A model generated the notes under the pieces. It saw nothing but the letters and a program-made list of their open reading frames with translations. It had not been told where the DNA came from and searched no databases. The translations under genes were made by a program, and so were the position numbers. Of a DNA stretch of 64,000 nucleotides, positions 44,182-62,988 are shown piece by piece. Source of the DNA: Kiloniellaceae bacterium (lineage in GTDB: Bacteria; Pseudomonadota; Alphaproteobacteria; Kiloniellales; J153); assembly GCA_021776095.1 (NCBI GenBank), contig JAJFGO010000055.1, positions 7,551 to 71,550 of the forward strand, in the 5' to 3' direction. Positions within the stretch are counted from its first letter, which is position 1, and each line of letters opens with the position of its first letter.

Positions 44182-44642
44182 TCCCCCACCCCTCCGTTCG
44201 GATATCGCCCCACTCTAAGGGCATGTGTTTAAGGCGAATCAACAGATTAACAAAGGTTATTACGCCGCCGGGGCGTACTTTGTCAACGCGTTCCATAACG
44301 TGTGGCTTACGCGTAGATAGCGAATATCAGGTTAACCGGACCCGGGAATCTATCAATCGACGGACAGGCCAAAGCATCGACTAGACAAGCGCTGTCCTGG
44401 GCAACTATCAATGCTAAACGGTGAAATTAACTTTTTCCGAAGGCTACTCGTATAATCGTTATTCTTGATGGTACTGTGATAATTCACGATATTCGGGCGG
44501 GTCACCATCTACGGAAGGGCCGGAACGTGTCCGGTGCCGGGCCGAGGCACTAGCCGCGGCCCGCAATGCAATGCCAGCCATCCTAAAATTTTAGGGGCGG
44601 GAGCGAGGCGGGCGGATAAACAAGAATGACAGTTCACGTGGC

Positions 44643-47405: not shown

Positions 47406-47418
47406 CCGGGAAAGCGCC

Positions 47419-48738
47419 ATGGTCAGCAACCAGGAAGACCTGCACTTCATGCCCGACGTTCACGCGGCGGCGCGGCGCCGTGGGCACCGCTTCGCCAGTA
47501 TTCTGACGTTCCTGACCTTCCTCTTCATAGGGATCATGGGCGTTTGGGCCCACTACGCGGTCCTGGACGAAGTGACGCGTGGGGAAGGCCGGGTCATTCC
47601 CTCAAGCAAAATCCAAGTCATCCAGAACCTGGAAGGCGGCATCCTGGCCGAAACCCTGGTCCGCGAAGGCGACATCGTTCAGGCGGGCGATATCCTGGTA
47701 CGGATCGACAACACCGCGGCGCAGGCGAGCTTCCGCGACCTGCAGGCCCAACACTACACCCTGCTCGCCACGATCGAACGCCTGGACGCCCAGCAGTCCG
47801 GCCGCGACATGAAGATCGACCAGGACTTGCGCGACAAGGCACCCGCCGCCGTGGCCGACCAGGAATCCTTATTCGATTTTCTCCGGCGCCAATTGACGGC
47901 GCAGATCTCGGTGCTCGAGTCCCAAGCCTTGCAGCGCACACAAGAAATCGCGGAGATGAATAGTAGGACCAAGCAGCTGCGGCGCAGCCTGGCGCTGACG
48001 CGTGAAGAGCGCGCGATCACCGAACCCTTGGTGCGTAACGGCGTCATGCCGCGCGTGGAATTGATTCGAATCGACCGCCAGGTGTCCGACCTGGAGGGCG
48101 AGATCGGAACCATCCGCCTATCGATCCCACGGTTGCAATCCGCGGTCAAAGAGGCCGAGCAGCGGATCGAGGAAGTCCGCCTGAGCGCCAAGAGCGAGAT
48201 CACCAACGAATTGAACCGGGCCCGCGCGGAGCTGCAATCGATTCGCCAAACCATGTTTGCCGGCGCGGATCGGGTCACCCGGACCGAAGTCCGCTCGCCG
48301 GTGCACGGCACCATCAAAGAACTCATGCACACCACGGTCGGCGGCGTGATCCGGCCGGGCGAGGATATTCTGGAAATCGTGCCCTTGGACGACCGGCTTT
48401 TGATCGAGGCCCAGATCCGGCCGACCGATATCGCCTTTCTGCGGCCCCTGCAGAACGCGGTCATCAAGGTCGCGGCCTATGATTTCTCGATCTACGGCGG
48501 GCTCAAGGCCACGGTGGAGCAGATCAGCGCCGATACCATCAAGGACGAACAGGGCGACAGCTTCTACCGGGTCTACCTGCGGACCGATCAGAACACCATT
48601 GTCCACCAGGGCAACGAACTGCCGATCATCCCGGGCATGACCACGACGGTGGAGATCCTGACCGGCAAGAAGTCGGTCCTGGACTATCTCCTCAAGCCGA
48701 TCCTCAAGGCCCGCGATCGCGCCCTAAGGGAACGCTAA
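47419..48738 (+). CDS. HlyD-family type I secretion membrane-fusion protein
   Basis: 439 aa. N-terminal TM segment, long coiled-coil, C-terminal GMTTTVEILTGKKSVLDYLLKP. Confidence 0.9.
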   Translation: MVSNQEDLHFMPDVHAAARRRGHRFASILTFLTFLFIGIMGVWAHYAVLDEVTRGEGRVIPSSKIQVIQNLEGGILAETLVREGDIVQAGDILVRIDNTAAQASFRDLQAQHYTLLATIERLDAQQSGRDMKIDQDLRDKAPAAVADQESLFDFLRRQLTAQISVLESQALQRTQEIAEMNSRTKQLRRSLALTREERAITEPLVRNGVMPRVELIRIDRQVSDLEGEIGTIRLSIPRLQSAVKEAEQRIEEVRLSAKSEITNELNRARAELQSIRQTMFAGADRVTRTEVRSPVHGTIKELMHTTVGGVIRPGEDILEIVPLDDRLLIEAQIRPTDIAFLRPLQNAVIKVAAYDFSIYGGLKATVEQISADTIKDEQGDSFYRVYLRTDQNTIVHQGNELPIIPGMTTTVEILTGKKSVLDYLLKPILKARDRALRER

Positions 48739-48986
48739 GCCCCCCCGGGGCCATCCCACACACCGATCCAAGCGTCGGGGAACCGGCCGGCACGCGGTCG
48801 CCGCCGGTCCAAGGCTCGCGCCGCCGTCGCGCCAGGACCCGGCGACCCTCATGTTATAATGAAGGTCTATTAACCATTGATTTGTTTATATGTTCTATCT
48901 GTGACTAACCATAAGCCGAAATCCTTCCTTCACCAAAACCAGCCACTCTAAGGGGCCCTATCCCGTGCCGGTCAAGCGATCGAATT

Positions 48987-49796
48987 GTGAGCGAATTTCT
49001 GGTGTTGTTTTGGCGCAGCGCATCTGTCGTCTGCACCGCCTTCTTACTGACTTTGGCGGTCGCAGGTGGGCGGGCGGCTCAAGCGCAAACCCTGGGCGAT
49101 CTCGCCCGCGCCAGCCAGAGCGCAACCGGCGCCACGATAAGACCCCAGGCCCTGAACGGCTCCAGTCCAATAACCGGCAACGGCCTATTTGGCACCGCCG
49201 AGTTCGTGTCCGACTCACTCAAGGGTCTGCCGCAGTGGACTCGCGTTCTGGCGGAGATGGGCCGTGAGCGCCCCAAGTTCGACGCCTGCGCACGCGACGT
49301 CTCGCGCTGTACCTCCCCGACCTTGCGTAACTGGCACCATATCATCAACTCGGCGGCCAAGCTCAACCGCGCCGGCAAGATCCGCGCGGTCAATGAGTTC
49401 TTCAATCGCTGGCCCTACAAGGAAGACCGTGAGATTTACGGACGCAGCGAGTATTGGGCGGCGCCGAGCGAGTTCATGGCCCGCTCCGGCGACTGCGAAG
49501 ATTACTCCATCGCGAAGTACTTCGCGCTGCGCCAACTCGGCTTCGGCGAAGACGAATTGCGGGTGGTGATACTGATGGATGAGATTCGCGGTATCGGGCA
49601 CGCCGTTTTGGCGATATACGAAGAGGACAAGATTATTGTTCTCGACAGTTTATCCAATTTGATCCTGCCCCATGATCGCTATAAGCATTACCGGCCGCAG
49701 TACTCGATGAACGAATCGAGGCGCTGGGCCCATGTCGGCGGTTTCCGGAACCAGCCGACGGCACCCTATCGAGGGCTGGCCGCCCGTCAAAATTGA
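48987..49796 (+). CDS. Periplasmic transglutaminase-like cysteine protease (BTLCP, LapG-type)
   Basis: Signal peptide. YWAAPSEFMARSGDCEDYSIAKYFALRQLGF (Cys), GHAVLAIY (His), VLDSL (Asp). Confidence 0.85.
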   Translation: MSEFLVLFWRSASVVCTAFLLTLAVAGGRAAQAQTLGDLARASQSATGATIRPQALNGSSPITGNGLFGTAEFVSDSLKGLPQWTRVLAEMGRERPKFDACARDVSRCTSPTLRNWHHIINSAAKLNRAGKIRAVNEFFNRWPYKEDREIYGRSEYWAAPSEFMARSGDCEDYSIAKYFALRQLGFGEDELRVVILMDEIRGIGHAVLAIYEEDKIIVLDSLSNLILPHDRYKHYRPQYSMNESRRWAHVGGFRNQPTAPYRGLAARQN

Positions 49797-49810
49797 GTCG
49801 GAGAGCGAAG

Positions 49811-51931
49811 ATGGACTCGGCGGCGGGCGTTGAGAGCCCTGGAGCCATTAATTTGTTATCGTCGGACCTGCCGGCCACCGAGGCGAAGCCGGGCGGCCCG
49901 CGGGCGCTCATGGCCCGCGCCATCTGGGTCCTGGCGATCATTGCCACCCTGGCCGTGATCGTGCCCGCGATTCAGATTTACAATGAGCGTGCCAGCTTGC
50001 TGACCGATCTGGAGCGGCGCCTGGGAATCTTGGCCAGGGGCCGGGCCGAGGTCATCGATACTTGGCTGGAGGGCTTGGCGCACCCGGTCGACAAGGTGGT
50101 CAACAGCGAGATGTTCCGCCTGTTCGCCACCGAGGTCGATCTGTCGCTGACCGACATGGCCGATCTGGCGGCTGGCAACCGGCGCCCCAAGGCAGAATCG
50201 TCCGGCAGCGATATCAGCGTGCCCCTGAGCGCGCAGATCCCCTTCATGTCGCAGGTCATGACCGATTTCGCGAAAAGCGAGGGCTTTGCCTCCGGTCACT
50301 TGATCAACCGCCGCGGCGTGGCCTACGTCGGTAGTGCCGGGGCGCCTGAACTCGGCCCGGCCCAGGCCGAACTGGCCGCGCAGGTCGTCAAGAGTGGCGT
50401 GTTGCGCTACGGTCCGCTGCGCGACACGGCCGGCGGCTTGATCCTCGATATTTTCGCCCCTGTACGCAGCGCGCAAAGCGGCAGCGACCGCGCCAGCCCG
50501 GTCGGCGTGGCGCTTTTGAGCGTGCCGGTCAGCCCGCGCCTGCAACAATTCCTGGCGCCGCCCCCGCTCACCGAGCCAGGCGAGCGGCTAAGGCTGCTTC
50601 AGTTCACCGACGGCAAAGCCTACGAGATCGCGCCGGGCGAGACGCCCGCGCTGCGTCCGGTCAGCGGCCTGGCCGCGGAACGGACCGGGCCGGTCATCGG
50701 CTTTGCCCGGCGCGCCGGGCTCGCCGGCGGATCGGTCTATTCAGTCGGCGCACCCTTGAGCGGCCCCGGCTGGTGGGCTGTCCAGGAGATCAAAGCCGAG
50801 GCCATGAGCCAGCGCCTGGGCGGATTCATTGCGACCGTGGTCACCCTGGCGGTTTTGGTGATCCTGGCGATCGGCGCCGTCTTCGGGGCCTTTTGGTGGC
50901 GCCTGGCCAACGAGCACAGTTCGGCCCTGGCCCAGCAATACCGCCGCCTGGCGGCACGCATCGAGACTCAGAAACACCTTCTCGACAGCATCAACAACAC
51001 AATTACAGACCACATCGGATTGAAAGGCCCGGACGGCGCCTATCGCTACCTGAACCCGGCCTTCGCCCGCACCATCGGCAAGGATGTCGATCAAGCGATC
51101 GGCCTGGACGACGCCGCCATCTATGGCCAGGGCACGGCCGCGCGCCTAAAGCATTCGGACCAGCGCGCCCTAGCCTCTGGCGCGGCAGTGACGGTCAACG
51201 AGGAGGTCTACCTGGGCGGCAAACCGCGCCACCTACAGATCACCAAGATTCCCCACCGCGACGATTCGGGGGTCTTCTCGGGCATCGTGGCGGTGACCCG
51301 CGACGTGACCGAACTGGTCGAGGAACAGAAAAAGCGCGAGCAAGCTGTCCGCCAGACGGTTTCCGCCCTGGTTCGCGCGGTCGAGCTGCGCGATCCCTAC
51401 CTGGCCGGGCATTCCCAACGGGTGGCCGGATTCGCGGCCGCGGTCGCCCAACGCCTGGGCGCGTGTCCCGAAGACATCGCGACCGTGGAAATTGCGGCCG
51501 ATTTATCGCAAATCGGCAAGCTGGGCGTACCGCGCGAAATCTTGAACAAGCCGGGCCGCCTAACCCCGGACGAGATCGTGCAGATGCAAAGCCATCTCGA
51601 TCACGCCGCCGCCGTCCTGCGCGGCATCGAATTCGGGCTTCCCGTCTTGGAAACTGTCATGGCCATGCACGAGCGCCTGGACGGCCAGGGCTATCCGGCC
51701 GGGTTATCGGGCGAGCACATCTCCCTGGCGGCTAGGATCCTTGGCGCCTGCGACGTTTTCTGCGCCCGGCTGGAGCCCAGGTCGTACCGCCGGGGCATAA
51801 CCGCCGCGGCAGCCTTGGATATCCTGGAAAGCAACGCGGAGCGCTATGACCCACGGGTCATCACTGCCCTGCGCGAGGTGGCGCAATCGGTCGCGGGCGA
51901 AAAACTCCTGGCCGACCTAGGCTCCGCCTGA
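49811..51931 (+). CDS. Transmembrane sensor: TM - ~290-aa periplasmic domain - TM - PAS - degenerate HD-GYP
   Basis: ATG 49811 after GGAGAG (the track start 49793 is a TTG overlapping the upstream stop). HSQRVAG..., ADLSQIGKLGVP (canonical LHDIGK), MHERLDGQGYPAGL (canonical HHExxDGxGYP). Confidence 0.8.
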   Translation: MDSAAGVESPGAINLLSSDLPATEAKPGGPRALMARAIWVLAIIATLAVIVPAIQIYNERASLLTDLERRLGILARGRAEVIDTWLEGLAHPVDKVVNSEMFRLFATEVDLSLTDMADLAAGNRRPKAESSGSDISVPLSAQIPFMSQVMTDFAKSEGFASGHLINRRGVAYVGSAGAPELGPAQAELAAQVVKSGVLRYGPLRDTAGGLILDIFAPVRSAQSGSDRASPVGVALLSVPVSPRLQQFLAPPPLTEPGERLRLLQFTDGKAYEIAPGETPALRPVSGLAAERTGPVIGFARRAGLAGGSVYSVGAPLSGPGWWAVQEIKAEAMSQRLGGFIATVVTLAVLVILAIGAVFGAFWWRLANEHSSALAQQYRRLAARIETQKHLLDSINNTITDHIGLKGPDGAYRYLNPAFARTIGKDVDQAIGLDDAAIYGQGTAARLKHSDQRALASGAAVTVNEEVYLGGKPRHLQITKIPHRDDSGVFSGIVAVTRDVTELVEEQKKREQAVRQTVSALVRAVELRDPYLAGHSQRVAGFAAAVAQRLGACPEDIATVEIAADLSQIGKLGVPREILNKPGRLTPDEIVQMQSHLDHAAAVLRGIEFGLPVLETVMAMHERLDGQGYPAGLSGEHISLAARILGACDVFCARLEPRSYRRGITAAAALDILESNAERYDPRVITALREVAQSVAGEKLLADLGSA

Positions 51932-51981
51932 TCGCCGCGGCGGTTTCGCGGCGCGGGCCCGCTCTGCTATATCAAAGCTGC

Positions 51982-53070
51982 ATGCCAAACTGTCCTTCCC
52001 CTCATCGATCTCCGCGCCGCGGCGGTTCCGCCGTGCAGTATCTTGGGCCCTTTGTCCTTTGCCTTGGCCTCGTACTCGATTTGGTGCCGCTCGCTCCGAC
52101 CGAGGGCGCCCTGGCGGCCAGCCGGAATTTGGCCGAGGAAACCGGGCGAATCGAAGTCAACGCCATGGAGTATCCCTGGAGCGCGATCGGCCGGGTGAAT
52201 GCCGGGGGCCGGGGCCACTGCACCGGGTTCCTAGTCGGCGAGCGCGCCGTTCTGACCGCCGCGCACTGCCTCTACGATATGCGTGAGCAGCGCTGGCGCG
52301 GCGCCACGGAACTGCACTTCGTGGCCGGCTATCAGCGCGATACCTATACCCTCCATTCGCCGGTCGCCAGCTATGCCCGGGGTGCCGGTTTCAAGCCCGG
52401 CCCGGCAAGCGGCACGGCGAGCGCGTTGCACGATTGGGCGGTCCTGACCTTGGCACGGCCGATCGGGCGGCACGCCGGCTGGATCGGCCTGGGCCAGGCA
52501 AGTAAAGACCTGATCTCGAAAGTCGGGCGCGGCCAGGCCCGGATCCTGCAGGCCGGATACCGGCAGGGCTGGACCCATATCATGTCGGTCAGTTTCAACT
52601 GCAAGATCCTGGGACAATTTGGCAAGGGTCGGGGACTAGCCCATGCCTGCGACGTGGCCAAGGGCGATTCCGGCTCGCCCCTCCTGGCGCTGGCCGGCGG
52701 CAAGTTGCGGGTGATCGGCCTGCATGTCCTGGATATGCAGACCAAGCAGGGCCACGTGGCGGGCGCCCTCTCGGCCGCACTGTTCCGGCCCGGCACCGGG
52801 CGTGAGGAAGCAGTCAGCGCCTTGCGCCGCGCCGGCAGCGACTGGGGCGGCGGTCGGCCGCCCAAAAGCGGCAGCCCAGCGGCGTCAGCGCCGGTCAAGA
52901 CCATCGAGGACCTGCTGAGTGAGCTCGGCCTCTTGGACCCGCGCCGGGGAGGCCCCGATACGACGCGCCGCCGGGCCGCGATTGAGGCCTTCCAGGCAGA
53001 TGCCGGCCTACCGGTAACCGGGGAGCCCTCCCTGACCCTTCTGGGCCACCTGATCTCGGCAAGGGAATGA
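51982..53070 (+). CDS. Secreted S1-family (Glu-specific-like) serine protease with C-terminal peptidoglycan-binding domain
   Basis: Intact triad context: LTAAHCL, DWAVLTL, KGDSGSPLL. The C-terminal RRRAAIEAFQADAGLPVTGEPS is PG_binding_1-like. Confidence 0.8.
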   Translation: MPNCPSPHRSPRRGGSAVQYLGPFVLCLGLVLDLVPLAPTEGALAASRNLAEETGRIEVNAMEYPWSAIGRVNAGGRGHCTGFLVGERAVLTAAHCLYDMREQRWRGATELHFVAGYQRDTYTLHSPVASYARGAGFKPGPASGTASALHDWAVLTLARPIGRHAGWIGLGQASKDLISKVGRGQARILQAGYRQGWTHIMSVSFNCKILGQFGKGRGLAHACDVAKGDSGSPLLALAGGKLRVIGLHVLDMQTKQGHVAGALSAALFRPGTGREEAVSALRRAGSDWGGGRPPKSGSPAASAPVKTIEDLLSELGLLDPRRGGPDTTRRRAAIEAFQADAGLPVTGEPSLTLLGHLISARE

Positions 53071-53190
53071 TAACGACCCCCGGTCTATACCCATACGCCG
53101 GGCCCCGAACGCTAAGCCCCACGCGCGAGGCCAAGGCATGGGCTTACGAGTTCGCAAGCGCCCGGACACAGACTCGACAGGATAACGGAC

Positions 53191-53460
53191 ATGAATGACA
53201 TTTTTGTCGATGGCGTGCGCGCCGTTGCGGTCGCGAACGGCGTGGCGCGTATCGAGCTCCTGCAGCTCAAGCGGAGCACGGAGGCCGCCAAATTGGAGCC
53301 GCAGGTGGTCGCCACCTTGTTGATACCGGTCGGCGGATTGCGCGAGCTGGCGGCTCACCTTTCGACCAGCATTGAGCGAATCGAGGCGAGCCAAAAATCC
53401 AATTCGGCGGACCCGGCCAGCAAGGCCGGAGAGGTCGAATCCGCGCTGCAAAACCTCTAG
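53191..53460 (+). CDS. Hypothetical small protein
   Basis: 89-aa ORF. No motif recognised. Confidence 0.4.
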   Translation: MNDIFVDGVRAVAVANGVARIELLQLKRSTEAAKLEPQVVATLLIPVGGLRELAAHLSTSIERIEASQKSNSADPASKAGEVESALQNL

Positions 53461-53479
53461 GAGAGGCCGCCCCGGGGGT

Positions 53480-55405
53480 CTAACCGAACGGCGCGCTGAG
53501 GTCGATGGCGCCATCCTCCAACAACTGATCCGCGTCAAGGCCACTCGCCCGGCTCAGGATCGCGGCGGCGGCAAAGTTCTCACCGCTTCCGGTCGCATCG
53601 ACTTCAATCACCGTGTTTCGGCCATCGACGTTGAGACGCAAATAATCGTCCAGGTTATCGGCGTCCACCGCCGGCACGGCCCCGCCATTCCCGGAAAGGA
53701 TGTCGTAAAGGTTCAAGACGTCGCCCCTCGAGGCATTGAAATCGAAGATAAGGTCCGGCGCGCCGCCTAAATCCAGCACAAAGACATCGGCACCGCGTCC
53801 ACCGACCATGCGGTCGGCGCCGTCACCGCCGAAGAGAATGTCGTCTCCCGTGCCACCGTTGAGATAGTCGTTTCCCTCGCCTCCCAGCAAGAGGTCGTCG
53901 CCGGTACCGCCGATCAACCGGTCGTTGCCGGTCCCGCCATCCAGGGCATCGGCGCCGGAGCCGCCATTGAGATAGTCGCCGTGTTCGCCACCGCGCAGCA
54001 AATCGTCGCCGCTATCGCCAATAAGACTATCGCAGCCGGCACCGCCTTCCAAAGTATCGTCGCCGGAACCGCCGCGTAGTCGGTCATTCCCCTCGCCGCC
54101 TCGCAACACATCGGCGCCGCTATCGCCACGCAGGTTGTCGTCGCCGGTGCCACCATCCAAGTTGTCCGCGCCGGGGCCGCCTCGCAGGGAATCCCGCCCG
54201 GCCCCGCCCAACAGGGTGTCGTCGCCTTGGTCGCCGCGCAAATCGTCGTTGCCGTCGCCGCCCATAAGGGTGTCGTTGCCGCTATCGCCGCGGAGACTAT
54301 CGTTCCCCAAACCACCTTTCAGGACATCGTCACCAGCGCCACCACGAAGGCTATCGTCGCCACAACCCCCATCCAGCGTATCGGCCCCGTCGTCGCCGCG
54401 CAGCTTGTCATTGCCGGAGCCACCTAACAGGACGTCATCGCCAGCGCCGCCACGCAGATCATCCCGTCCGCCCCGGCCCACAAGCAAATCTGCCCCAACT
54501 CCGCCGCGCAGCGTGTCGTTTCCCCGATCGCCAATCAGCGTTACGCCGGGAGCTTCACTCGGTCCTTCAGGATCGCAGGGATCTTCAGGTTCGGGTTCAG
54601 GTTCGGGCTCTGGTTCCGGCTCGGGATCCGGCTCTGGCTCTGGTTCCGGGTCCGGCTCGGGGTCCGGCTCGGGTTCGGGTTCCGGCTCGGGCTCGGGCTC
54701 GGGCTCGGGCTCCGGCTCCGGCTCTGGTTCCGGTTCGGGCTCGGGTTCCGGCTCGGGCTCGGGCTCTGGTTCCGGCTCTGGCTCTGGATCGGGCTCAAGG
54801 CTGGCGGCCGGAACAGATTGCGGGTCCGCCCTCCCGCCGGGCCCCAACTCAAGGTTGCCGGCCGGACCGGCTTCACCGGGTTGAAAGGAAGAGTTTCGAT
54901 CAAAGTCCTGGATTCCGGTCTCGACCAGTCCCAAAGGTTCAGTATCTATCGGATCGATCGAACCCGAACGGTTCAACCCCACGCCGATCAATTCGCCGGT
55001 GTCGTCCTCGTAGGCGCCAGCCCCGGATGTCAAGGGCTGCGCATCGCCGGCGGCCGTCTCCGGCACCGCGTCGGCCTCCAGGCTCGTTATGGCCGCGATA
55101 AGTAGGGGAGCGGTCATGACCGAACCATCGCTCATCACAATGCTCGGCGGCTGGCTGGATTCGGCCGCTGCGACAAAACGGTCGAGACGAACCACACCGC
55201 CATTGCTGAACTGTAGATTTAACGACTCGCCGTCCAGGTGCGCCTGAATTTCAGCCGCCGGAAAGCCAAATGCCAAGGTATCGCCCGGTTCCACCGGGAT
55301 ACGCAGGGTCGCCCCTTCGTCCGGCGGGACGACCGCGATCTGTTGACCAGACGGCGTCTCAATAACGGCCCTGGAACCTTGCGCATCTAGGATCGTGTCT
55401 GCCAA
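53480..55405 (-). CDS. RTX calcium-binding type I secretion substrate with N-terminal TAAG-containing module and (PE)n stalk
   Basis: More than 20 GGxGxDxL nonapeptide repeats. The C-terminal [20 protein letters not shown]...[16 protein letters not shown] resembles the VCA0849-type T1SS signal domain. Likely TTG start at 55405, 6 nt after GGAGGAGG. Confidence 0.9.
54587..54797. repeat. Imperfect hexanucleotide tandem repeat (GGYTCN)n encoding about 35 Pro-Glu/Pro-Asp dipeptides
   Basis: ggttcgggttcaggttcgggctctggttccggctcgg... Read on the minus strand it gives PEPEPE...PDPE. Confidence 0.9.
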
Positions 55406-55675
55406 GAAACCTCCTCCAACTCCAGAGCAGTTGAGCAAACATCAAGCATACAATCAGATAGTACATCAGAATCGATAAATATTCGACTATTTAATTAAGT
55501 TAAAATATGATTATTATTTAGACATATTCTAAATAATTTTATTATTATTTTTCATTATATTGTCGTAGACTCTCAATTATACTTTGTGTATGAACCCTAG
55601 ACGGCTGTCACGGCTAGTTCGGAGCCGAATGTGGCAAGAGAACGGCGCCATCCCTCGGGGTCTAGTGGTCCGATC

Positions 55676-55702
55676 CTAACGCTTGGTTCCCAAGCGTTAG
55701 GT
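55676..55702. repeat. Perfect 12-bp-stem palindrome
   Basis: cctaacgcttgg-ttc-ccaagcgttagg. Confidence 0.7.
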
Positions 55703-55731
55703 GAATCGGCCCACCAAGCCGTTGATCTTGT

Positions 55732-55775
55732 GGGGCGACTTATCCAAACGGATGGGAACCATCCGTTTGGGTCGC
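55732..55775. repeat. Second, inverted copy of the hairpin core of the 7939-8100 element
   Basis: ggggcgacttatccaaacggatgggaaccatccgtttgggtcgc is the reverse complement of 7974-8017 with one mismatch. Confidence 0.75.
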
Positions 55776-56041
55776 GCCACTAGCGCACGATCGGACCCAA
55801 TTCGATGGGCTCATACGCTCTAACTTATTGATTAGGCTTATTTTCTTATACCGAACGACTTCACACCTTGTCCAAAACCGTCCCAGAAAGCTTGAATTAG
55901 AATTCGCGGCCGATTAGAAAAATCACCTCTTTCGTGACACTGTATTCCGTATTTGACATTGAAAATCCACAGAAGTTCTGCCAAGATACGGGTGCGGATG
56001 GGGTTCTTTTGATTAATCAATGAAGCCAGGACGGCTAGAAA

Positions 56042-56329
56042 ATGACCAAGACTTCGGAACCCGAAGGGACTAAAGTGGGGAGCGGTGTTCCGATGGAACA
56101 CGATTCGGCGGAGGCCAAGCGATTGGCCGCGCGCCGGCGTTTTCTTTTGGGCGGCGCGGCCGCCCTGCCATTGATCGTCACGCTCGGCCAAAAGGAGGCC
56201 TGGGCGGCGAGTGTGGCCGTTTGCCAGTCACTGGACATGAGCTACGACAAAAAGTATGTCAAGAATGAGCTCAAAGATGGCGGATGGAAAACGTCGTTGT
56301 ATTGTGATCCGGGCCGGCGCTGGAGCTAA
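56042..56329 (+). CDS. Small Tat-signal protein (about 40-aa mature part, two Cys, C-terminal Ser); candidate peptide substrate
   Basis: AARRRFLLGGAAALPLIVTLGQKEAWA|ASVAVCQSLDMSYDKKYVKNELKDGGWKTSLYCDPGRRWS*. AGGACGG lies 7 nt before the ATG. Confidence 0.55.
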   Translation: MTKTSEPEGTKVGSGVPMEHDSAEAKRLAARRRFLLGGAAALPLIVTLGQKEAWAASVAVCQSLDMSYDKKYVKNELKDGGWKTSLYCDPGRRWS

Positions 56330-56412
56330 GTCGGCTAAGAGGCGCGCCAGGCTGGGCTGCGTGACGGCTTCGGGATAATGCCATTACGGACGGAGATTCC
56401 TGGCGGCTCTGT

Positions 56413-56676
56413 GTGACCGGTCGCGAATTGGCTTGGCGCCAGTGGCAGGGCGAGTTGGTTGTCTTCAACCCGATATCAGGCGCGACTCATCTTTTAGATA
56501 TCGCCAGCGCCGAGATTTTTCATGCCTTAATGGCCGGGTCGACACGGCGCGGCGATTTGGCGGGTCGCCTGGCTGATCTGCTCGAAGTCGATTGCGACGA
56601 CGGGGTGCGGGCCGCGACCGACCGTATATTGGCGCGCCTGGACGACCTCGGCCTGGCGGAGCCGGCCGCCGCATGA
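56413..56676 (+). CDS. PqqD-family peptide-binding protein (HPr-rel-A system type)
   Basis: 87 aa. GELVVFNPISGATHLLDIASAEIFHAL is the PqqD/RRE pattern. GTG start. Confidence 0.8.
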   Translation: MTGRELAWRQWQGELVVFNPISGATHLLDIASAEIFHALMAGSTRRGDLAGRLADLLEVDCDDGVRAATDRILARLDDLGLAEPAAA

Positions 56677-57602
56677 TTCTGAGAGATCTATCCGTCGACG
56701 AGATCTTCCGGCACTTAAGCAGTACCGGCCTGGTGCTAGACACCGGCGCATTTCATGTTCACCTGCGCACCGATCTGAAAAGCCTGGCCCAAATGCTGGC
56801 ACGCAGTTATGGCGGCCACAAGGTCGAAGCCGAACCGGCGATCCATCACATGCAGGTGCGGATCGAACGGGGCAAATGGCGCGGCCCATGGCGCGACCGG
56901 GGTGTGCAAGCCTTCGTGAACGACCGGCAGATCTTGGGTCCCTTCCCAACTTACCTGGCCTATCCCATGCTGGAATCGATCCTTAACTGGTCGATCGCCA
57001 AGTTGATTCTGCGCTATGTCATTTTTCATGCCGGCGCGATCGAGCGCGACGGCCGAGCGCTCATCCTCACCGGGCCTTCGGGCTCGGGCAAAAGTACGCT
57101 CTGCGCCGCACTTTCCCAGACCGGGTGGCGCCTGTTATCCGACGAAATGGTGTTGCTAAACCCCACCGGGCCGGCAATCGCCGGCAACCCCCGGCCAATT
57201 TCGCTCAAGAACGATGCCATAACCCGGATCCGCGCCGTGGCCCCCGCAGCGACCTTTACCGACTCGTACGAAGGCACCGTTCGGGGCACGATCTCTTTCG
57301 TCTGTCCGACCCCCGATTCGGTCGTGCGGGCCGCAGAATCTGCACCGCCAAGCCGGGTCGTCTTTCCGCGCTTCCAGAGCGGGGCCGAGACCGAAATTAA
57401 GAAACTGGAAAAGGCCCAAGGCTTCATCCGCCTGATCGAGAATTCGGTCAATTACGTGGCAACCTTGCGCACCGGTTTCGAGGCGGTGGCGAACTTGACC
57501 GAGCAATGTCGGTTTTACGAAATCACTTTCGGCGATCTCGGTGCGGCGATGACGGCCATCGAAACCGTCGCCGCGCCGGAACCCGGCGACGGGGCGGCCT
57601 AG
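56673..57602 (+). CDS. HprK-related kinase A
   Basis: Start MILRDL in an ATGA overlap with the PqqD stop. HAGAIERDGRALILTGPSGSGKST...LLSDE resembles the HPr kinase C-terminal domain. Confidence 0.8.
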   Translation: MILRDLSVDEIFRHLSSTGLVLDTGAFHVHLRTDLKSLAQMLARSYGGHKVEAEPAIHHMQVRIERGKWRGPWRDRGVQAFVNDRQILGPFPTYLAYPMLESILNWSIAKLILRYVIFHAGAIERDGRALILTGPSGSGKSTLCAALSQTGWRLLSDEMVLLNPTGPAIAGNPRPISLKNDAITRIRAVAPAATFTDSYEGTVRGTISFVCPTPDSVVRAAESAPPSRVVFPRFQSGAETEIKKLEKAQGFIRLIENSVNYVATLRTGFEAVANLTEQCRFYEITFGDLGAAMTAIETVAAPEPGDGAA

Positions 57603-57604
57603 AG

Positions 57605-58705
57605 GTGACCCGAGGCGGTGAAATTCTGCTCGGGGTCCTGCGCGACCCGCGGCACGTCCTAGACCTTGGCCCGGCCGACTGGAACGCCTTAATGGCTTGC
57701 GCCGGGCGCCATACCTTGCTCGGGCGCCTAGCTGTCGTTCTCGAGGATGCCGGCTTGCTGGCGGAACTCCCCCAGATCGCTCAAGATTTGCTGGCCGACT
57801 CCGCCGCCATGGCGAAGGCCAATCAGACCATGCAACGTTACGAGGCAAACCGGGTGCAGCATGCCCTGCGGGGGATGGATATCCCGGTGGTGCTGCTCAA
57901 GGGCGGTGCCTATCTGCTGGCCGGCTTGCCGCCATCGCGCGGCCGGCTGTCCGGCGATCTGGACATACTGGTGCCGCGCGAGCGCATCGAACAGGTTGAG
58001 CACGCTTTGCTGGAGCAGGGCTGGCAGAGCCCGGCCATGAACGCCTACGACCAACGCTATTACCGGGAATGGAGCCATCAGATCCCGCCTTTGCGCCACC
58101 TCGAGCGGAAGAGCGAACTGGACGTTCATCACACCATCGCCCCGCCGACCGGCCGCGCCGGCCCGGATACCCAGGCAATTCTGCGCGATGCCCAGCCATT
58201 GAAGGACGGCGGCCTGCGCGTGCTCTGCCCCCCCGACATGGTGCTGCACAGCGCCGTGCATTTGTTCAACGAGCAGATGATCATGGCCCTGCGCGACCTG
58301 ATCGATATGCACGATCTGCTCAGCCACTTTGGCGGCGACGAGGCTTTTTGGCCGGAATTGGTAAGCCACGCCGCCACGCATAATTTGCAGGGCCCGTTGT
58401 ATTATTGCACCCGCTATTGCCGCCGCTTCTTGGGGACATCCATACCGGCCGGGGCCCTGAGCGAAATCGAGGCCTTTGCGCCCAATCCGCTCGCACGCCG
58501 GGTCATGGATTGGCTGGTCGCCGCGACCTTGGTGCACGAGCCCCCGGACCGCCAATCGCCGGGGGCAGCGTTTGCGCGTTGGCTCTTATTTGTGCGATCG
58601 CATTGGCTGCGCATGCCGCCGGGCATGCTGATCCGTCACATCCTGGTCAAGACCTTCCGCCGCGCGCGGCCCGATCCCGAGTCCGAGCCCTTGCCGCAAC
58701 CTTGA
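57605..58705 (+). CDS. Uncharacterised nucleotidyltransferase-family protein (NTP_transf_5-like)
   Basis: LKGGAYLL...SGDLDILVP...ELDVHHTI pattern. Probable GTG start 3 nt after the kinase stop. Confidence 0.7.
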   Translation: MTRGGEILLGVLRDPRHVLDLGPADWNALMACAGRHTLLGRLAVVLEDAGLLAELPQIAQDLLADSAAMAKANQTMQRYEANRVQHALRGMDIPVVLLKGGAYLLAGLPPSRGRLSGDLDILVPRERIEQVEHALLEQGWQSPAMNAYDQRYYREWSHQIPPLRHLERKSELDVHHTIAPPTGRAGPDTQAILRDAQPLKDGGLRVLCPPDMVLHSAVHLFNEQMIMALRDLIDMHDLLSHFGGDEAFWPELVSHAATHNLQGPLYYCTRYCRRFLGTSIPAGALSEIEAFAPNPLARRVMDWLVAATLVHEPPDRQSPGAAFARWLLFVRSHWLRMPPGMLIRHILVKTFRRARPDPESEPLPQP

Positions 58706-60014
58706 TGCCGGAAAGCACTGCAACGACCGAGGCCGCTAACGCGAGTCCGATCAGATCCGCCACCAGATCCGGAACCGCGCTGTTGCGGCTGACGACAAAC
58801 CATTGCAGGCTTTCGGTAGCCAGGGCGAAGCTTGACAGACAGACCAAGCGGCCAGCCCAGGGCGCCTGGGGAAACGCGGCAAAGCCAGCAAGGCCGAGCA
58901 GGAAGAACGCGGCGAAATGGCCAATCTGCTTTGGATTGAAGGGATAATCGATCTGCGGCGGTGCCCGTGCGGCAGAAGTTTCCGCGGTCGCGTTGGCGGT
59001 TTCGGATTCGGATTCGACTTCGGCGCGCCCTTCGGACCGGTCCTTCGGCGGAGTCTGTCCTGAGCCGTTTGCGGCGCTGGTTTTCGGCGCGGCATTTGAC
59101 GGCGCGGTCCCGAGATCCTTAGCAAGGTCGCGCGGCTCCGCTGTGCCGGGCGGAGTTCGGATCCAGCTCCGCAGCCGGTCGACAGTGTAGTCGGCCACCG
59201 CCAAGGCCAGCCCCTCAAGTGGCGCCGTGACGCTGCGAAAATAGGGCTGTGGGGTTAGGGTTCCAACCAGCGCAAAGACCATCAGACCGAGCAATAGGCC
59301 AGCGCGCAGGCGACTTGTCACCCGGCGAAGCAGCGCGCGTGCGAGGAACAAGCCGCCGACCACCCAGGCCAGAACCAAGGCTCCCCTCATGAACACGAAG
59401 GCCGGCCGCTCGCTTAGGGCAGCAACTTCCGGCGCCCCGGCCCGCAGCACACCCGATTCGGCCCCATTGTAAATGCGCAGGACCGCGTGCTTGGGGCCAG
59501 CTTCGATCGGCAAAACCGCCGTGACCGGACTGAACGGCTGGTCGCTCGACAGGACCGCGACCTCTCTCGGCCAATACCATAGAAAATCACCGGACTGACC
59601 GAACCCCAGGAGCTCAACCTTCGCGGTCTGCCAAGACCGTCGGCCGGGCCTAAGCTTCTCGGCGCCAAGCTTGAGGGTAATGCGAAGGGCATCGACATTG
59701 GGCGGCAACGCAACGGGCGCCTGCAGCACGGCGGATTGGCCAGCGCCTCTGGGCATGAGACGCGCGATGACCATATCGGCCTCCTCATCGAACGTGATTC
59801 CGGCCGTCGTCTGCTGCCAGAGTCGCAGGTCCAGCGGCGGCGCGACTCCGGCAGTGACCTCGGCAGGTGCATCGACATAGCGGGCAGCGGTATTGAGGAC
59901 GCCATAGCTCGCTGCACAAAGTACCGCCAAGGCTAAGATAAACCCCAGGGGCCAGGGCCGGTCAGCAATCCATTGGCAACGCAAAGCGTTTAGCACCCTA
60001 TCCATAGCCACCAA
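58647..60014 (-). CDS. Large membrane protein with C-terminal VanZ-like domain
   Basis: GHFAAFFLLGLAG...ATESLQWFVVSRNSAVPDLVADLIGLALA is VanZ-like. The N-terminal ~300 aa are unrecognised. The 3' end overlaps the convergent nucleotidyltransferase gene by 59 nt. Confidence 0.6.
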   Translation of the reverse strand: MVAMDRVLNALRCQWIADRPWPLGFILALAVLCAASYGVLNTAARYVDAPAEVTAGVAPPLDLRLWQQTTAGITFDEEADMVIARLMPRGAGQSAVLQAPVALPPNVDALRITLKLGAEKLRPGRRSWQTAKVELLGFGQSGDFLWYWPREVAVLSSDQPFSPVTAVLPIEAGPKHAVLRIYNGAESGVLRAGAPEVAALSERPAFVFMRGALVLAWVVGGLFLARALLRRVTSRLRAGLLLGLMVFALVGTLTPQPYFRSVTAPLEGLALAVADYTVDRLRSWIRTPPGTAEPRDLAKDLGTAPSNAAPKTSAANGSGQTPPKDRSEGRAEVESESETANATAETSAARAPPQIDYPFNPKQIGHFAAFFLLGLAGFAAFPQAPWAGRLVCLSSFALATESLQWFVVSRNSAVPDLVADLIGLALAASVVAVLSGIKVAARARTRDRAARGGRS

Positions 60015-60470: not shown

Positions 60471-61103
60471 ATGTCATTTGGCCTGACCGACTTTGGAAAA
60501 TCCCTGCGGCGACTGGCTGTCGTCGCTGTGTTTGCGCTTGGCGCCTGCTCCGGGCACCAGGAACTACCCGGGGTCGGCGAAGCCGAAGCGGGTAGCGAGC
60601 CCCTTTACAAGATCGGCCCGGGCGACAGTCTACAGATATTCGTGTGGCGCAATCCGGATCTTGGTATTTCGGTTCCAGTCCGCCCGGACGGTCGCATTTC
60701 CGTGCCGCTCTTGGAAGACATCGTCGCCGCCGGAAAAACGGCGACCGATTTATCCCGCGAGATCGAAGGAAAGTTGGGCGAATATATCCAGGATCCCCTG
60801 GTGACCGTGATTATCACGGGCTTCATCGGGAACTACACCGAGCAGGTCCGGATTGTCGGCCAGGCGACAAATCCACAGGCGATCCCGTATCGCGCTAAGA
60901 TGACCTTGCTGGACGCCATGATCTCGGTCGGCGGGCTGGCGGAATTCGCGGCCGGTAATCGGGCCACCTTGGTGCGCCGGGTGGGCGGCGAACAAAAGCA
61001 ATACCGCCTGCGCATCGCCGATCTGATCAAGGACGGCGATATTTCGGCGAACGCCGACCTTTTACCGGGCGACGTCATCATTATCCCGGAGAGCGTTTTC
61101 TAG
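60471..61103 (+). CDS. Polysaccharide export outer-membrane lipoprotein (Wza/EpsA-like, PEP-CTERM-locus type)
   Basis: Start MSFGL. Lipobox FALGAC. YKIGPGDSLQIFVW Poly_export motif. SLBB-like C-terminus GDVIIIPES. Confidence 0.85.
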   Translation: MSFGLTDFGKSLRRLAVVAVFALGACSGHQELPGVGEAEAGSEPLYKIGPGDSLQIFVWRNPDLGISVPVRPDGRISVPLLEDIVAAGKTATDLSREIEGKLGEYIQDPLVTVIITGFIGNYTEQVRIVGQATNPQAIPYRAKMTLLDAMISVGGLAEFAAGNRATLVRRVGGEQKQYRLRIADLIKDGDISANADLLPGDVIIIPESVF

Positions 61104-61341
61104 CGGAAACGTAGTAAGAGGAGCGAGTTCGCACAGGGGAAAACGGGAGCATGATCGCGAGGCAAGGTTCTCGCGCGTGATCGCGCCTCGATTGGGATAG
61201 CCCGATGCTGGCCTCATAGCCTGATTGTCAGGCCCCGGATAGAATACGGCACCGTATCTCTGGCAACGAAACGCAAGACGACTTGAATTTGGTGAAGACG
61301 TCCTTCGTTGATTTGAGCTTGAACATAGTCAGGTAGGCTAT

Positions 61342-62988
61342 ATGGCGGAAATCATCACACAACTCCTGACCCACGCCTTTGCGGCGTGGCGGAACCGGGG
61401 TTACGCGATTGCGGTTGCTTGGGTCGTGGCCCTGGGATCTTGGACTGCGGTATCCCTCTTGCCCGACAGCTTTCGCTCGGAAGCGGTCGTTCATGTCGAC
61501 ACGGCGAGCATTTTGGAGCCCTTGCTCCGCGGCTTGACCGTCGATCTCGATCGCGTGTCGGAAATCGGGCTCATGCAGAAGACCCTGTTGAGCAGACCCA
61601 ACATCGAAAGGGTGATACGCGACACAGATCTGGATCTTAAAGCACGCAGTGTGTCGGACAGCGAAAGGCTGATTGAGGACCTCGCAGGCCGGATCAAGGT
61701 GGAGCGGCAAGGTCAGCGACAGGGCTTGGATCTCTTTGCCATCTCCTTCAAAGACAAGAACCCGCAATTGGCGCACGACGTGGTTCAGTCCCTGCTGACC
61801 ATCTTCGTCGAAAGCAATCTGGGGCAAAGCCGGGGCGATATGGATACGGCGCGTCGCTTCATCGAAGACCAGATCATCCTCTACGAGACGAGGCTCGCGG
61901 AGGCCGAGCGCCGCATCTCCGAATTCCGCCAGGCAAACATCGGCCTCTTGCCACGCGACGGGGCTCAGACACGAACCCTCGAAGCCACACAAGACCGTTT
62001 GGCGGACGTGGAGGCGGATTTGCGCGACGCGCAATTGCGGCGCACGACACTGCTACGCGAGCTCAAGAGTATCCCACGCTTCTTTGCCGCCGAATCCGGC
62101 TCTGGGTTTGGCGCCGGACCGCCCACGGATACCGCCGTGCAGATCCTCGAAGCCCAATCGGTGCTCGACAACCTCTTGGCCAGCTATACTGAGAAACACC
62201 CCGATGTCGTCGTCGCGAAACGGCGCCTGGAGACCCTGTTCGAACAACAGAAGAAAGAGCTTCAGGCAGCAGCCGCCGCCCTCGATGCGGGGCCGCAGAC
62301 CAGCGAAGAGCCGGTGGAAGCAACCGGCATTTCGAATCCGATCTACGAACAGATAAAGATCCAGGTGGTCGAGGCAGAAGCCAAGGTGACGTCGCTCAAA
62401 GACAAGGTGGCCAATGTCACCAAGGACGTGGAGCGGGCCAGGAAAACGGCATCGCGCGGACCTGAGTTGGAAGTCGAATTGGCCCGGTTGAACCGCGACC
62501 ACGAGGTTTTGATGGTCAGCTACAATCGGCTCGTGGCCAGCCGCGAGACCGAGCAAATTTCGCGGGCGCGTGAAAACCAGGCCGAATCGATCCAGTTCCG
62601 CGTGGTGGAACCGCCGACAGTCCCCACTCTCCCTGCCGGTCTTAATCGGCTCTTGTTGCTTGTGATCTCACTCGTTGTAAGTCTTGCTTCCGGCATCGGC
62701 GTCGCCGTGCTACTTGCGTTGTCGAGCGAGACCTTCACCAGCACGGCCGAGCTGAAGGCCGTTTTAGGCGTCCCTGTTCTGGGCAGTGTCTCGATCACCG
62801 AAAATACTGGCGGCGGCATTCTATCCCATGGCAAATCGGTGTTGTTTTGGGCCATGACCTTTGCCCTTTTCGCAACCTTTGCCGCCTTATGGTTCATTGA
62901 AGTCCGGCTTGGATTGAACGATTTCGCAATGGGTGGATTGCTGGACCGCTTGCCCGCCAGTATCTTGCAGCGCCTGCCGGTATTTTGA
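61342..62988 (+). CDS. Polysaccharide chain-length determinant (Wzz/GumC-like)
   Basis: N-terminal TM + Wzz motif (FRSEAVVHVD), long coiled-coil, C-terminal TM segments. Confidence 0.8.
   Translation: MAEIITQLLTHAFAAWRNRGYAIAVAWVVALGSWTAVSLLPDSFRSEAVVHVDTASILEPLLRGLTVDLDRVSEIGLMQKTLLSRPNIERVIRDTDLDLKARSVSDSERLIEDLAGRIKVERQGQRQGLDLFAISFKDKNPQLAHDVVQSLLTIFVESNLGQSRGDMDTARRFIEDQIILYETRLAEAERRISEFRQANIGLLPRDGAQTRTLEATQDRLADVEADLRDAQLRRTTLLRELKSIPRFFAAESGSGFGAGPPTDTAVQILEAQSVLDNLLASYTEKHPDVVVAKRRLETLFEQQKKELQAAAAALDAGPQTSEEPVEATGISNPIYEQIKIQVVEAEAKVTSLKDKVANVTKDVERARKTASRGPELEVELARLNRDHEVLMVSYNRLVASRETEQISRARENQAESIQFRVVEPPTVPTLPAGLNRLLLLVISLVVSLASGIGVAVLLALSSETFTSTAELKAVLGVPVLGSVSITENTGGGILSHGKSVLFWAMTFALFATFAALWFIEVRLGLNDFAMGGLLDRLPASILQRLPVF

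Follow-up and report, generated by a model that had tools for sequence, protein, structure and literature searches.

A Tat-signal protein encoded ahead of the HPr-rel-A enzymes is a candidate substrate of this modification cassette

What does the HPr-rel-A system modify? In annotation pipelines this cassette is catalogued as two named proteins, a PqqD-family peptide chaperone and an HprK-related kinase, plus a nucleotidyltransferase (NTase), with no known substrate. In this article I will discuss a stretch of 64,000 nucleotides (nt) from a Kiloniellaceae bacterium (contig JAJFGO010000055.1, positions 7,551 to 71,550 of the forward strand; hereafter the window), in which a gene for a protein with a twin-arginine translocation (Tat) signal is added to these three. 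All four genes lie on the forward strand where a preliminary description of the window had placed them: a Tat-signal mini-protein of 95 amino acids (aa; 56042 to 56329), marked as candidate precursor and substrate by its sequence, homologues and synteny; a PqqD-family peptide chaperone of 87 aa with a GTG start (56413 to 56676), which is a discrete recognition element (RRE) of the kind that serves peptides synthesized on ribosomes and then modified post-translationally (RiPPs); HprK-related kinase A (309 aa, 56673 to 57602); and an NTP_transf_5 nucleotidyltransferase-fold protein of 366 aa, again with a GTG start (57605 to 58705). The spacer of 83 nt between the mini-protein and PqqD genes and the ATGA overlap between those for PqqD and the kinase (ATG at 56673 to 56675, TGA at 56674 to 56676) are as described too, whereas the gap between kinase and NTase, given as 3 nt, is 2 nt, because the TAG stop of the kinase (57600 to 57602) finishes at 57602. 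The assignment of the enzymes to HPr-rel-A, made in that description, was borne out by hidden Markov models (HMMs), the scores being 46.4 bits for TIGR04353 ('HPr-rel-A system PqqD family peptide chaperone'; cutoff 35), 264.6 bits for TIGR04352 (cutoff 200) and 187.6 bits for PF14907 (gathering score 31.2); the PqqD protein also scores 20.3 bits with PF05402, just under the gathering score of 23.4.

The first part of an answer lies in the company that these genes keep elsewhere. Genome loci were retrieved with a kinase alignment, the best 80 of >485 confirmed matches being taken (a scan with a single kinase sequence gave no match, and an alignment was needed as the query); they come from Alpha-, Beta- and Gammaproteobacteria, Planctomycetota, Terriglobia and Gemmatimonadota, and their kinases are 34-51% identical to that of the window. 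The kinase, PqqD and NTase genes of the window are tightly coupled and stand in the same order as in these 80 other loci, and 81 of 83 sequences have PqqD and NTP_transf_5 genes together with that of the kinase. An open reading frame (ORF) that obeys a strict Tat rule (RR.[FLIVM], then a 14-residue uncharged, hydrophobic or small stretch) and ends 30-303 nt before PqqD, in the same orientation, is present upstream in 74 of the 76 cassettes with enough upstream DNA, when only 91 of 1201 other ORFs in the same loci (7.6%) pass the rule; ORF starts were assigned mechanically here and may be over-extended. The two exceptions are one locus (L073) with a signal-like RR.L sequence that fails the filter and another (L008) in which the sequence before the PqqD ORF extends for only ~540 nt. 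The only ORFs matched by an HMM of the mini-protein family were co-oriented ones immediately upstream of PqqD, and reverse look-ups from four mini-protein homologues on metagenomic contigs returned the same order of mini gene, small ORF, ScmC/HprK-like gene and NTP_transf_5 in 4/4 cases, as far as the contigs reach (that of L089 stops inside the ORF after the small one). Since the upstream synteny and the reverse look-ups agree, the unit is, judged by gene order, a cassette of four genes and not three, with the Tat-signal ORF as its near-universal fourth member; and since that ORF stands upstream in nearly every cassette, it is likely to be the long-missing substrate of the modification system. 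The reading that I favour, and consider somewhat probable, takes the Tat-signal protein for the cognate substrate on which the HPr-rel-A enzymes act before Tat exports it.

Is the small ORF a gene at all, and does it carry the signal claimed for it? The protein reads MTKTSEPEGTKVGSGVPMEHDSAEAKRLAARRRFLLGGAAALPLIVTLGQKEAWA up to the predicted cleavage site and ASVAVCQSLDMSYDKKYVKNELKDGGWKTSLYCDPGRRWS beyond it, or, around that site and at the tail, ...AEAKRLAARRRFLLGGAAALPLIVTLGQKEAWA followed by ASVAVCQS...SLYCDPGRRWS. As previously described, it has an arginine pair (residues 31-32), an AxA site (residues 53-55, A53-W54-A55), and a predicted mature part of 40 aa with two Cys and a final Ser, S95. 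The signal or leader (aa 1-55) occupies nt 56042-56206, with RRRF at nt 56132-56143, and the mature peptide nt 56207-56326, in which the codons of C61 (56222-56224), S63 (56228-56230), C88 (56303-56305) and S95 (56324-56326) are found. A textbook Tat signal has the consensus S/T-R-R-x-F-L-K, a 'Sec-avoidance' charge, and a cleavage site with small residues at -3 and -1. The window protein shows the corresponding sequence features, namely a Tat-type motif (A-R-R-R-F-L-L), a moderately hydrophobic and uncharged h-region (GGAAALPLIVTLG), a basic residue in the c-region (K51) and the AxA site, and the consensus of the signals of all 74 loci, [AS]-R-R-R-[FL]-x-[KR]-x-G-...-T-L-x-S-[RK]-P-[VA]-[LM]-[AG], in which the h- and c-regions are unusually conserved and a basic c-region residue occurs in 60 of the 74, appears to fit the textbook form.

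A word-indexed search gave 52 homologues of the mini-protein, a profile of which collected 134 representatives at 50% identity from 1.84 billion proteins, and in the resulting short family of 174 members RR.[FLIVM] is present in 174/174 and exactly two Cys in 132. Invariant are R27, A30, R31, R32, F34, L35, G37, G38, A39, C61 and C88, with S63 nearly so, and mean column conservation is 0.84 for residues 23-57 (EAKRLAARRRFLLGGAAALPLIVTLGQKEAWAAS) against 0.29 in the middle of the mature part, a contrast between a strongly conserved leader and a variable core that looks RiPP-like. Over 33 leader codons, six alphaproteobacterial-type homologues (L003, L004, L083, L085, L087, L089) each differ from the window by 12-17 synonymous and 5-8 non-synonymous changes, and gene callers have called the gene independently in other assemblies; by these measures the 95-aa ORF is evidently a real gene whose leader is under purifying selection. 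Pfam and NCBIfam hold no family for the window mini-protein or for any of the upstream proteins scanned, short or long, and a cluster look-up gave no annotation for the window proteins. One could argue from the silence of the curated Tat HMMs and of all family libraries on the small ORF that its adjacency is coincidental and that it is spurious or an unrelated secreted protein. However, with a synteny of 74/76 across phyla, 174 homologues, purifying selection on the leader and independent gene calls to set against it, this idea is vanishingly improbable, and I regard it as effectively refuted.

Where in such a protein might a kinase act? Beyond the signal, and the motif by which it is immediately followed, the upstream proteins have little in common. 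That motif is Cys-x-Ser/Thr-(Pro/Ala)-Ser-Gly-x-x-Ser, its Cys lying 25-31 residues past the arginine pair in most loci and a second Cys following ~20 aa on, mostly 20-22 residues beyond the first. Ser or Thr occurs at Cys+2, +4, +8 and +12 with frequencies of 0.58, 0.62, 0.60 and 0.45, as compared with 0.16 elsewhere in these proteins, and in the short family Cys+2 is Ser in 111 of 169 members. These conserved hydroxyl residues fall just past the predicted signal-peptidase site, S63 being the one in the window, together with S57 and S67. Not every upstream ORF conforms; short Tat ORFs without Cys occupy the precursor position in L005, L025, L057, L063 and L064, with tails rich in Gly and Ser or in Gly, Arg and Lys (such as ...TTSGALSGSVSPPP and ...GGGHGKGGGKGGGRGSS), which suggests further diversity of substrates. 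With a Cys so soon after the signal, a lipoprotein reading was also considered, and it was rejected because a lipobox is absent outside a few loci (L037, L076 and L042, for example), the residues before the first Cys being mostly V, T, M and I.

The preliminary description had pointed instead to the other end of the protein, S95, with phosphorylation of the C-terminal Ser as in paeninodin and pseudomycoidin and decoration by the NTase thereafter, and had envisaged a small Tat ORF ending in Ser or Thr as the conserved upstream neighbour. The neighbour is indeed conserved (74/76 cassettes and 4/4 reverse look-ups), but the Ser end is not. It is true that the window protein ends in Ser, that the HprK homologues associated with lasso peptides use a C-terminal Ser, and that Ser is still the commonest last residue of the short family; nevertheless this means 24 of 174 members, 86% ending otherwise, and these include close homologues (...RWP, ...RWG, ...CDP, ...CRQ, ...CRN). 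No part of the short family is conserved less, or missing more often, than the tail beyond the second Cys (conservation of 0.25 over the last five residues, with gaps of up to 48%), the long forms discussed below have unrelated C-termini, and the phosphorylation site in the linear polyphosphorylated peptides (LPPs) is Ser3 of the core and not the C-terminus (PMC13381572). With a C-terminal Ser in only 14% of the family, the C-terminal acceptor of the earlier idea fails, in favour of the conserved Ser/Thr at Cys+2, +4, +8 and +12, and I consider phosphorylation of S95 very unlikely.

The upstream proteins differ greatly in size, from 35 to 254 aa between the arginine pair and the end (median 176 over the 74 loci), and they fall into a short class with ~35-95 aa after the pair (65 in the window) and a long class with ~160-250. 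At least 224 proteins make up the long class, all 'hypothetical' and without a Pfam or NCBIfam family, of which L075 9087-9671 and P0174 are examples with a Tat signal and a Ser-rich C...C segment; long forms also carry an invariant motif of the S-P-G-Y-W-K type and a helical domain of ~110 aa. In the AlphaFold model of P0174 this domain is confidently predicted (residues ~80-190, pLDDT, the per-residue confidence measure, >90), with a flexible segment (pLDDT 53-69) between it and the signal, and a Foldseek search of the long-form model against the PDB gave nothing better than E 3.8. The AlphaFold2 model of the window mini-protein is of low confidence (pLDDT 58.6) and has no interpretable fold. 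When short and long families are aligned with hhalign, only RRRF...VC(Q/K)S matches (E 1.9e-5).

Could the Tat-signal protein then be a partner rather than a substrate? It might act as a conserved periplasmic effector, sensor or matrix component under shared regulation with the cassette, while the enzymes modify another peptide, the PEP-CTERM proteins, or an intermediate linked to lipid or belonging to the exopolysaccharide (EPS). The conserved folded domain of the long forms would suit such a role, as would the PEP-CTERM proteins and many glycosyltransferases encoded nearby, a leader lacking the YxxP motif of known RREs, and the possibility, raised for the NTP-transferase LppN of the LPP clusters, that such an enzyme needs partners outside its cluster. 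However, RREs of the PqqD type bind peptides and the Tat ORF is the only conserved gene for a small peptide in the unit; PEP-CTERM proteins do not adjoin the cassette in most loci; and the mature domains are unrelated between subfamilies that nonetheless keep the signal and the C-x-S segment, so that a conserved activity of the mature protein is hard to argue. I therefore hold the partner explanation to be unlikely, if worth keeping in mind.

The same long forms invite a second alternative, which is a variant of the substrate model with different chemistry. Tat typically carries cofactor-bearing or pre-folded proteins, and PqqD could be a Tat proofreading chaperone while the kinase and NTase build or attach, through a phosphodiester, a prosthetic group derived from a nucleotide or sugar phosphate, or help to load a metal on the two Cys; export would wait for this, and the product would be a holo-protein. 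Besides this typical use of Tat, two near-invariant Cys, the invariant His, Asp, Asn and Tyr in the folded domain of the long forms, and an NTase fold suited to nucleotidyl or phosphodiester transfer all speak for it; yet no stable fold is predicted for the 40-aa mini forms, which have a hypervariable middle, some upstream ORFs have no Cys at all, and the sole characterized relatives make phospho-Ser peptides, which leaves maturation of a cofactor protein decidedly unlikely in my view.

Are the enzymes themselves fit for such work? The PqqD family of the cassette, as a profile of 35 members run against the PDB, finds as its only significant solved relatives the leader-binding RREs of lasso clusters, TbiB1 (5v1u/5v1v, E 5e-4) and TfuB1 (6jx3, E 2e-3), over profile positions 12-90 and thus the whole domain; T25-H26 of PqqD is invariant. 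A second PqqD-family gene (PF05402) is found in L087 (4219-4506, reverse strand), ~1.2 kb downstream of the cassette on the opposite strand and after a LysR regulator. The kinase, with >4141 homologues, has its P-loop GPSGSGKST at residues 134-142 (nt 57072-57098) and an S-D-E motif at residues 156-158 (nt 57138-57146), with G137, G139, K140, S141, T142, S156, D157 and E158 invariant, and its profile weakly reaches the HPr kinase/phosphatase structures 1ko7 and 1jb1 (E ~3e-5). Two other HprK-related proteins, ScmC of SynChlorMet (TIGR04249) and HprK-related kinase B (TIGR04355), share with it a weak but specific similarity confined to the P-loop region (31 and 26 bits, far below the cutoffs of 125 and 200 bits), and their partner genes differ from those of the cassette (radical SAM/SPASM; ATP-grasp); homologues of the kinase nonetheless bear the precomputed Pfam tag PF27840 'ScmC'. 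PADLOC returned only P-loop noise, and hence no link to a defence system. In the NTase the motif LKGaAY...GR.f.D.Dilvp is conserved over 85 cassette homologues, which keep the polymerase-beta-type G-x-A-Y...D-x-D with its predicted catalytic D118-x-D120 (nt 57956-57964), and a sequence search found no solved structure for it. None of the three enzymes has an apparent signal peptide when the N-termini are read by eye, and all three should act in the cytoplasm; because they need ATP or nucleoside triphosphates (NTPs) and show no signal peptide, modification would come before export.

What is already known of enzymes like these elsewhere? The closest parallel is the LPPs of Bacillota, the clusters of which lie in capsular-polysaccharide loci and encode an RRE (LppB), an HprK-like kinase (LppK), an NTP-transferase (LppN), a protease of the signal peptidase I type (LppS) and an MsbA-like pump (LppD), with a precursor of 35-200 aa that is conserved at the N-terminus and variable at the C-terminus (Popov et al., Nat Commun 2026; PMC13381572). 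LppK polyphosphorylates core Ser3, immediately past the cleavage site; the leader is handed to LppS by LppB; and LppN was silent in the heterologous host and may need partners outside the cluster (PMC13381572). The cassette resembles this arrangement in its gene set (RRE, HprK-like kinase and NTP-transferase, and no lasso cyclase), in its polysaccharide loci, in the 35-200 aa range of LPP precursors, and in that the LPP phospho-Ser sits few residues past a site of the signal-peptidase type. It differs in that no counterpart of the LppS peptidase is found near the window cassette or among the conserved neighbours of the 80 loci and no exporter like LppD is conserved beside the cassettes, the nearest ATP-binding cassette (ABC) exporter of the window being that of an LssB-type type I secretion system (T1SS; 44643-47405), 9 kb upstream with RTX and Lap genes. 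The LPP leader carries YxxPxVLxHQxIxFETxxS and is no export signal, unlike the twin-arginine leader here, and its motif is absent from the window protein and the family consensus. Furthermore, LPPs and paeninodins are described as restricted to Bacillota, with no mention of Tat or Proteobacteria (PMC13381572), whereas the cassette occurs in Gram-negative phyla and XrtA/PEP-CTERM loci. By analogy, then, the cassette appears to work like an LPP cluster while being no member of that class, a likeness drawn from descriptions of the two.

Phosphorylated lasso peptides offer the second comparison. In the pseudomycoidin and paeninodin systems an HprK-family kinase (PsmK for pseudomycoidin) phosphorylates or polyphosphorylates a precursor Ser, possibly before other maturation, the target of lasso-associated HprK homologues being the C-terminal Ser; a PqqD-like B1 RRE binds the leader; and the NTP-transferase PsmN, with its required pair of Asp, is needed to place a hexose on the phosphate (PMC6993621). 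The PqqD family of the cassette is nearest to the lasso B1 structures, but lasso clusters have a macrolactam synthetase, a B2 protease, an ABC exporter and a C-terminal Ser as target, whereas the cassette has none of these three genes, no conserved C-terminal Ser in its precursor family, and a Tat signal as leader: neither an Asn_synthase/macrolactam synthetase nor a B2 of the transglutaminase type was found in the cassette or its immediate flanks, and the LapG-like protease at 48987-49796 was assigned to the Lap module and not to a lasso B2. Nor is any gene for a signal-peptidase-like protein, an ABC exporter or an Asn-synthetase-like cyclase conserved beside the cassettes of the 80 loci. The earlier remark that cyclase and B2 are missing thus holds, with the LPPs as a cyclase-free relative (PMC13381572), and by its gene content the cassette is not a lasso cluster. 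In the literature searched I found no paper naming the HPr-rel-A system or an HprK-related kinase or NTP_transf_5 system, none on the upstream Tat-signal protein or on a Tat signal together with a PqqD/HprK cassette, and nothing relevant on PEP-CTERM with HPr kinase.

A third comparison concerns the proposed use of the Tat signal as a leader. TorD, DmsD and NapD are small cytoplasmic chaperones that bind a specific Tat signal and delay export until maturation is done. The role proposed here for PqqD is similar, the fold family is unrelated, and the likeness is one of analogy only; no PqqD or RRE protein is known to bind a Tat signal.

How might these parts work together? In the mechanism that I favour, with the Tat-signal protein as substrate, the precursor would be made in the cytoplasm, where the PqqD-like RRE would bind the conserved N-terminal signal or leader, keep the precursor from the Tat translocase and present it to the enzymes. 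The HprK-like kinase would then phosphorylate, perhaps more than once, a Ser shortly past the signal-peptidase site, for which S63 in V-C-Q-S is the best candidate in the window and the C-x-[ST]-[PA]-S-G-x-x-S segment that of the wider family, and the NTP_transf_5 protein, whose homologue in pseudomycoidin is required for a hexose on phospho-Ser, would extend or cap the phosphate. The decorated product, presumably no longer threadable through Sec, would be exported by Tat, and signal peptidase I would cut after A53-W54-A55 and so release a 40-aa peptide with two Cys into the envelope, where it may act with the XrtA/PEP-CTERM EPS machinery. The Tat route is a sensible one because modification needs cytoplasmic ATP or NTP and would give a bulky, highly charged cargo, and with Tat and an ordinary signal peptidase I no equivalents of LppS and LppD would be needed. 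The data show the identities of the genes, the conserved order of the four, the pattern of conservation and intact catalytic motifs; I infer from them that the RRE binds the signal, where and how the precursor is modified, that Tat exports it, and that it is linked to EPS. Taken in full, the proposal is that the Tat signal doubles as a leader read by the RRE; that the HprK-like and NTP_transf_5 proteins install a phosphate or polyphosphate, perhaps with a sugar or nucleotide, on C-x-S-P-S-G-x-x-S; that Tat and the housekeeping peptidase replace a dedicated exporter and leader peptidase; and that the products would be a new and very widespread Gram-negative class of secreted peptides and small proteins, decorated with phosphate and active in XrtA/PEP-CTERM matrix or floc formation. 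In this complete form I offer it tentatively, as a possibility that falls short of being likely.

Several points weigh against this interpretation. The mechanism is proposed here from sequence, and the cassette was compared with LppK, LppB and LppN by description. The leader is without the [Y/W]xxP motif of known lasso and LPP RREs, many upstream proteins have a conserved and well-folded domain of ~110 aa and resemble functional proteins more than classic RiPP cores, 6 of the 74 upstream ORFs have no Cys and some no Ser motif, and even in the LPPs the NTP-transferase, LppN, was silent (PMC13381572). The curated Tat models TIGR01409 and PF10518 left the window protein and nine relatives unmatched even at E<=10, a test of low power because the model is short and HMMER filters discard weak matches; L035 alone passes TIGR01409 (19.2 bits against 16.7), and with these HMMs silent on the window protein the Tat call rests on motif rules. 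Finally, the co-variation of PqqD with leader is confounded by shared ancestry. Leader type 1 ('E-x-K-R-x-A-A-R-R-R-F-L') is found in the window, L003, L004 (Alphaproteobacteria), L006, L014, L035 and L041 (Betaproteobacteria), and within it each of the three enzymes is closer to its counterparts than to those outside. PqqD follows leader type most strongly, its excess of similarity being +33% where the NTase has +12% and the kinase +4%, which lends the proposal weak support; as these two group by leader type as well, the co-evolution of PqqD and leader is only suggestive.

Why would it matter if the answer is right? The three-gene HPr-rel-A cassette was already known, as was the chemistry of LPPs and phosphorylated lasso peptides elsewhere (PMC13381572, PMC6993621); what is new is a near-universal Tat-signal precursor with a candidate acceptor segment of the C-x-S-P-S-G type and, by implication, a Tat signal as leader. 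A system catalogued in annotation pipelines, with a kinase that has thousands of homologues, now has a specific candidate substrate family, which provides a motif to mutate and makes the substrate question of a widespread system directly testable, including in culturable hosts such as Dechloromonas denitrificans ATCC BAA-841, Noviherbaspirillum denitrificans and several Massilia species. If true, the proposal would extend the LPP chemistry of Bacillota to Gram-negative bacteria, provide the first Tat signal acting as an RRE-recognized leader, and tie phosphorylation of peptides or proteins to the XrtA/PEP-CTERM EPS systems by which flocs and biofilms are formed, as in activated sludge.

The surroundings of the cassette bear on this last connection. 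An XrtA/PEP-CTERM EPS locus, at the edge of which the preliminary description had rightly set the cassette, starts on the forward strand at 60471 to 62988 with an export protein (60471-61103; TIGR03027, 234.9 bits) and a chain-length determinant (61342-62988; TIGR03007, 452 bits). The same families, and TIGR03018 as well, flank the cassette in related loci, the neighbours among the 80 being PrsT (27 loci), PrsK (17), the chain-length determinant (16), PrsR (15), the export protein (15), a TIGR03016 outer-membrane protein (13), a TIGR03013 glycosyltransferase (11), a tyrosine autokinase (11), a polysaccharide deacetylase (10) and PEP-CTERM proteins (10). Ahead of the four genes an intergenic region of ~600 bp (55439 to 56041, forward strand), without a convincing ORF, drops to a GC content of 0.28-0.42 from ~0.62 in the flanks and contains sigma-70-like hexamer pairs at 55483-55548 on the forward strand; it is probably the promoter or regulatory region of the unit. 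XrtA loci are usually under PrsR/sigma-54 regulation, and this region has no sigma-54 consensus, the count of which over the whole window is at chance level. Rfam gave no match in 55300-56500, the 83-nt spacer between precursor and PqqD genes has no significant RNA structure (z 0.25), and no credible terminator was found.

Between the cassette and the EPS locus, on the reverse strand, lies a gene for a membrane protein of ~450 aa with a C-terminal VanZ-like domain (58647 to 60014; NF037970 and PF04892, both at residues 356-433), which is convergent with the NTase gene and shares 59 nt with its 3' end. Cassettes are followed by a convergent VanZ-like gene also in L001 (2893-4251), L083 (7651-9045) and L085 (7856-9157)/L086, and since the arrangement recurs in cassettes of the alphaproteobacterial type, its product may be an accessory and possibly a fifth functional partner of these. 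The opposite flank of the cassette carries a Lap-like adhesin module (42790-55438), with TolC (42790-44181, reverse strand), the LssB-type T1SS ABC protein already mentioned (44643-47405), HlyD (47419-48738), the LapG-like cysteine protease (48987-49796), a c-di-GMP phosphodiesterase/LapD-like protein (49793-51931), and an RTX calcium-binding protein of 652 aa with a long (Pro-Glu)n repeat (53480-55438, reverse strand). A protein with a trypsin domain and a peptidoglycan-binding domain is encoded in the same region at 51982-53070, ~3 kb upstream of the cassette, and by BLAST it is not similar to another trypsin-like protein, a Sec-signal serine protease of ~260 aa that stands beside the cassette in 19 of the 80 loci, either some 2.5 kb upstream or as the next gene behind the NTase (for example L009 7420-8196, L075 8009-8800 and L065 12019-12786), and that could process the exported product.

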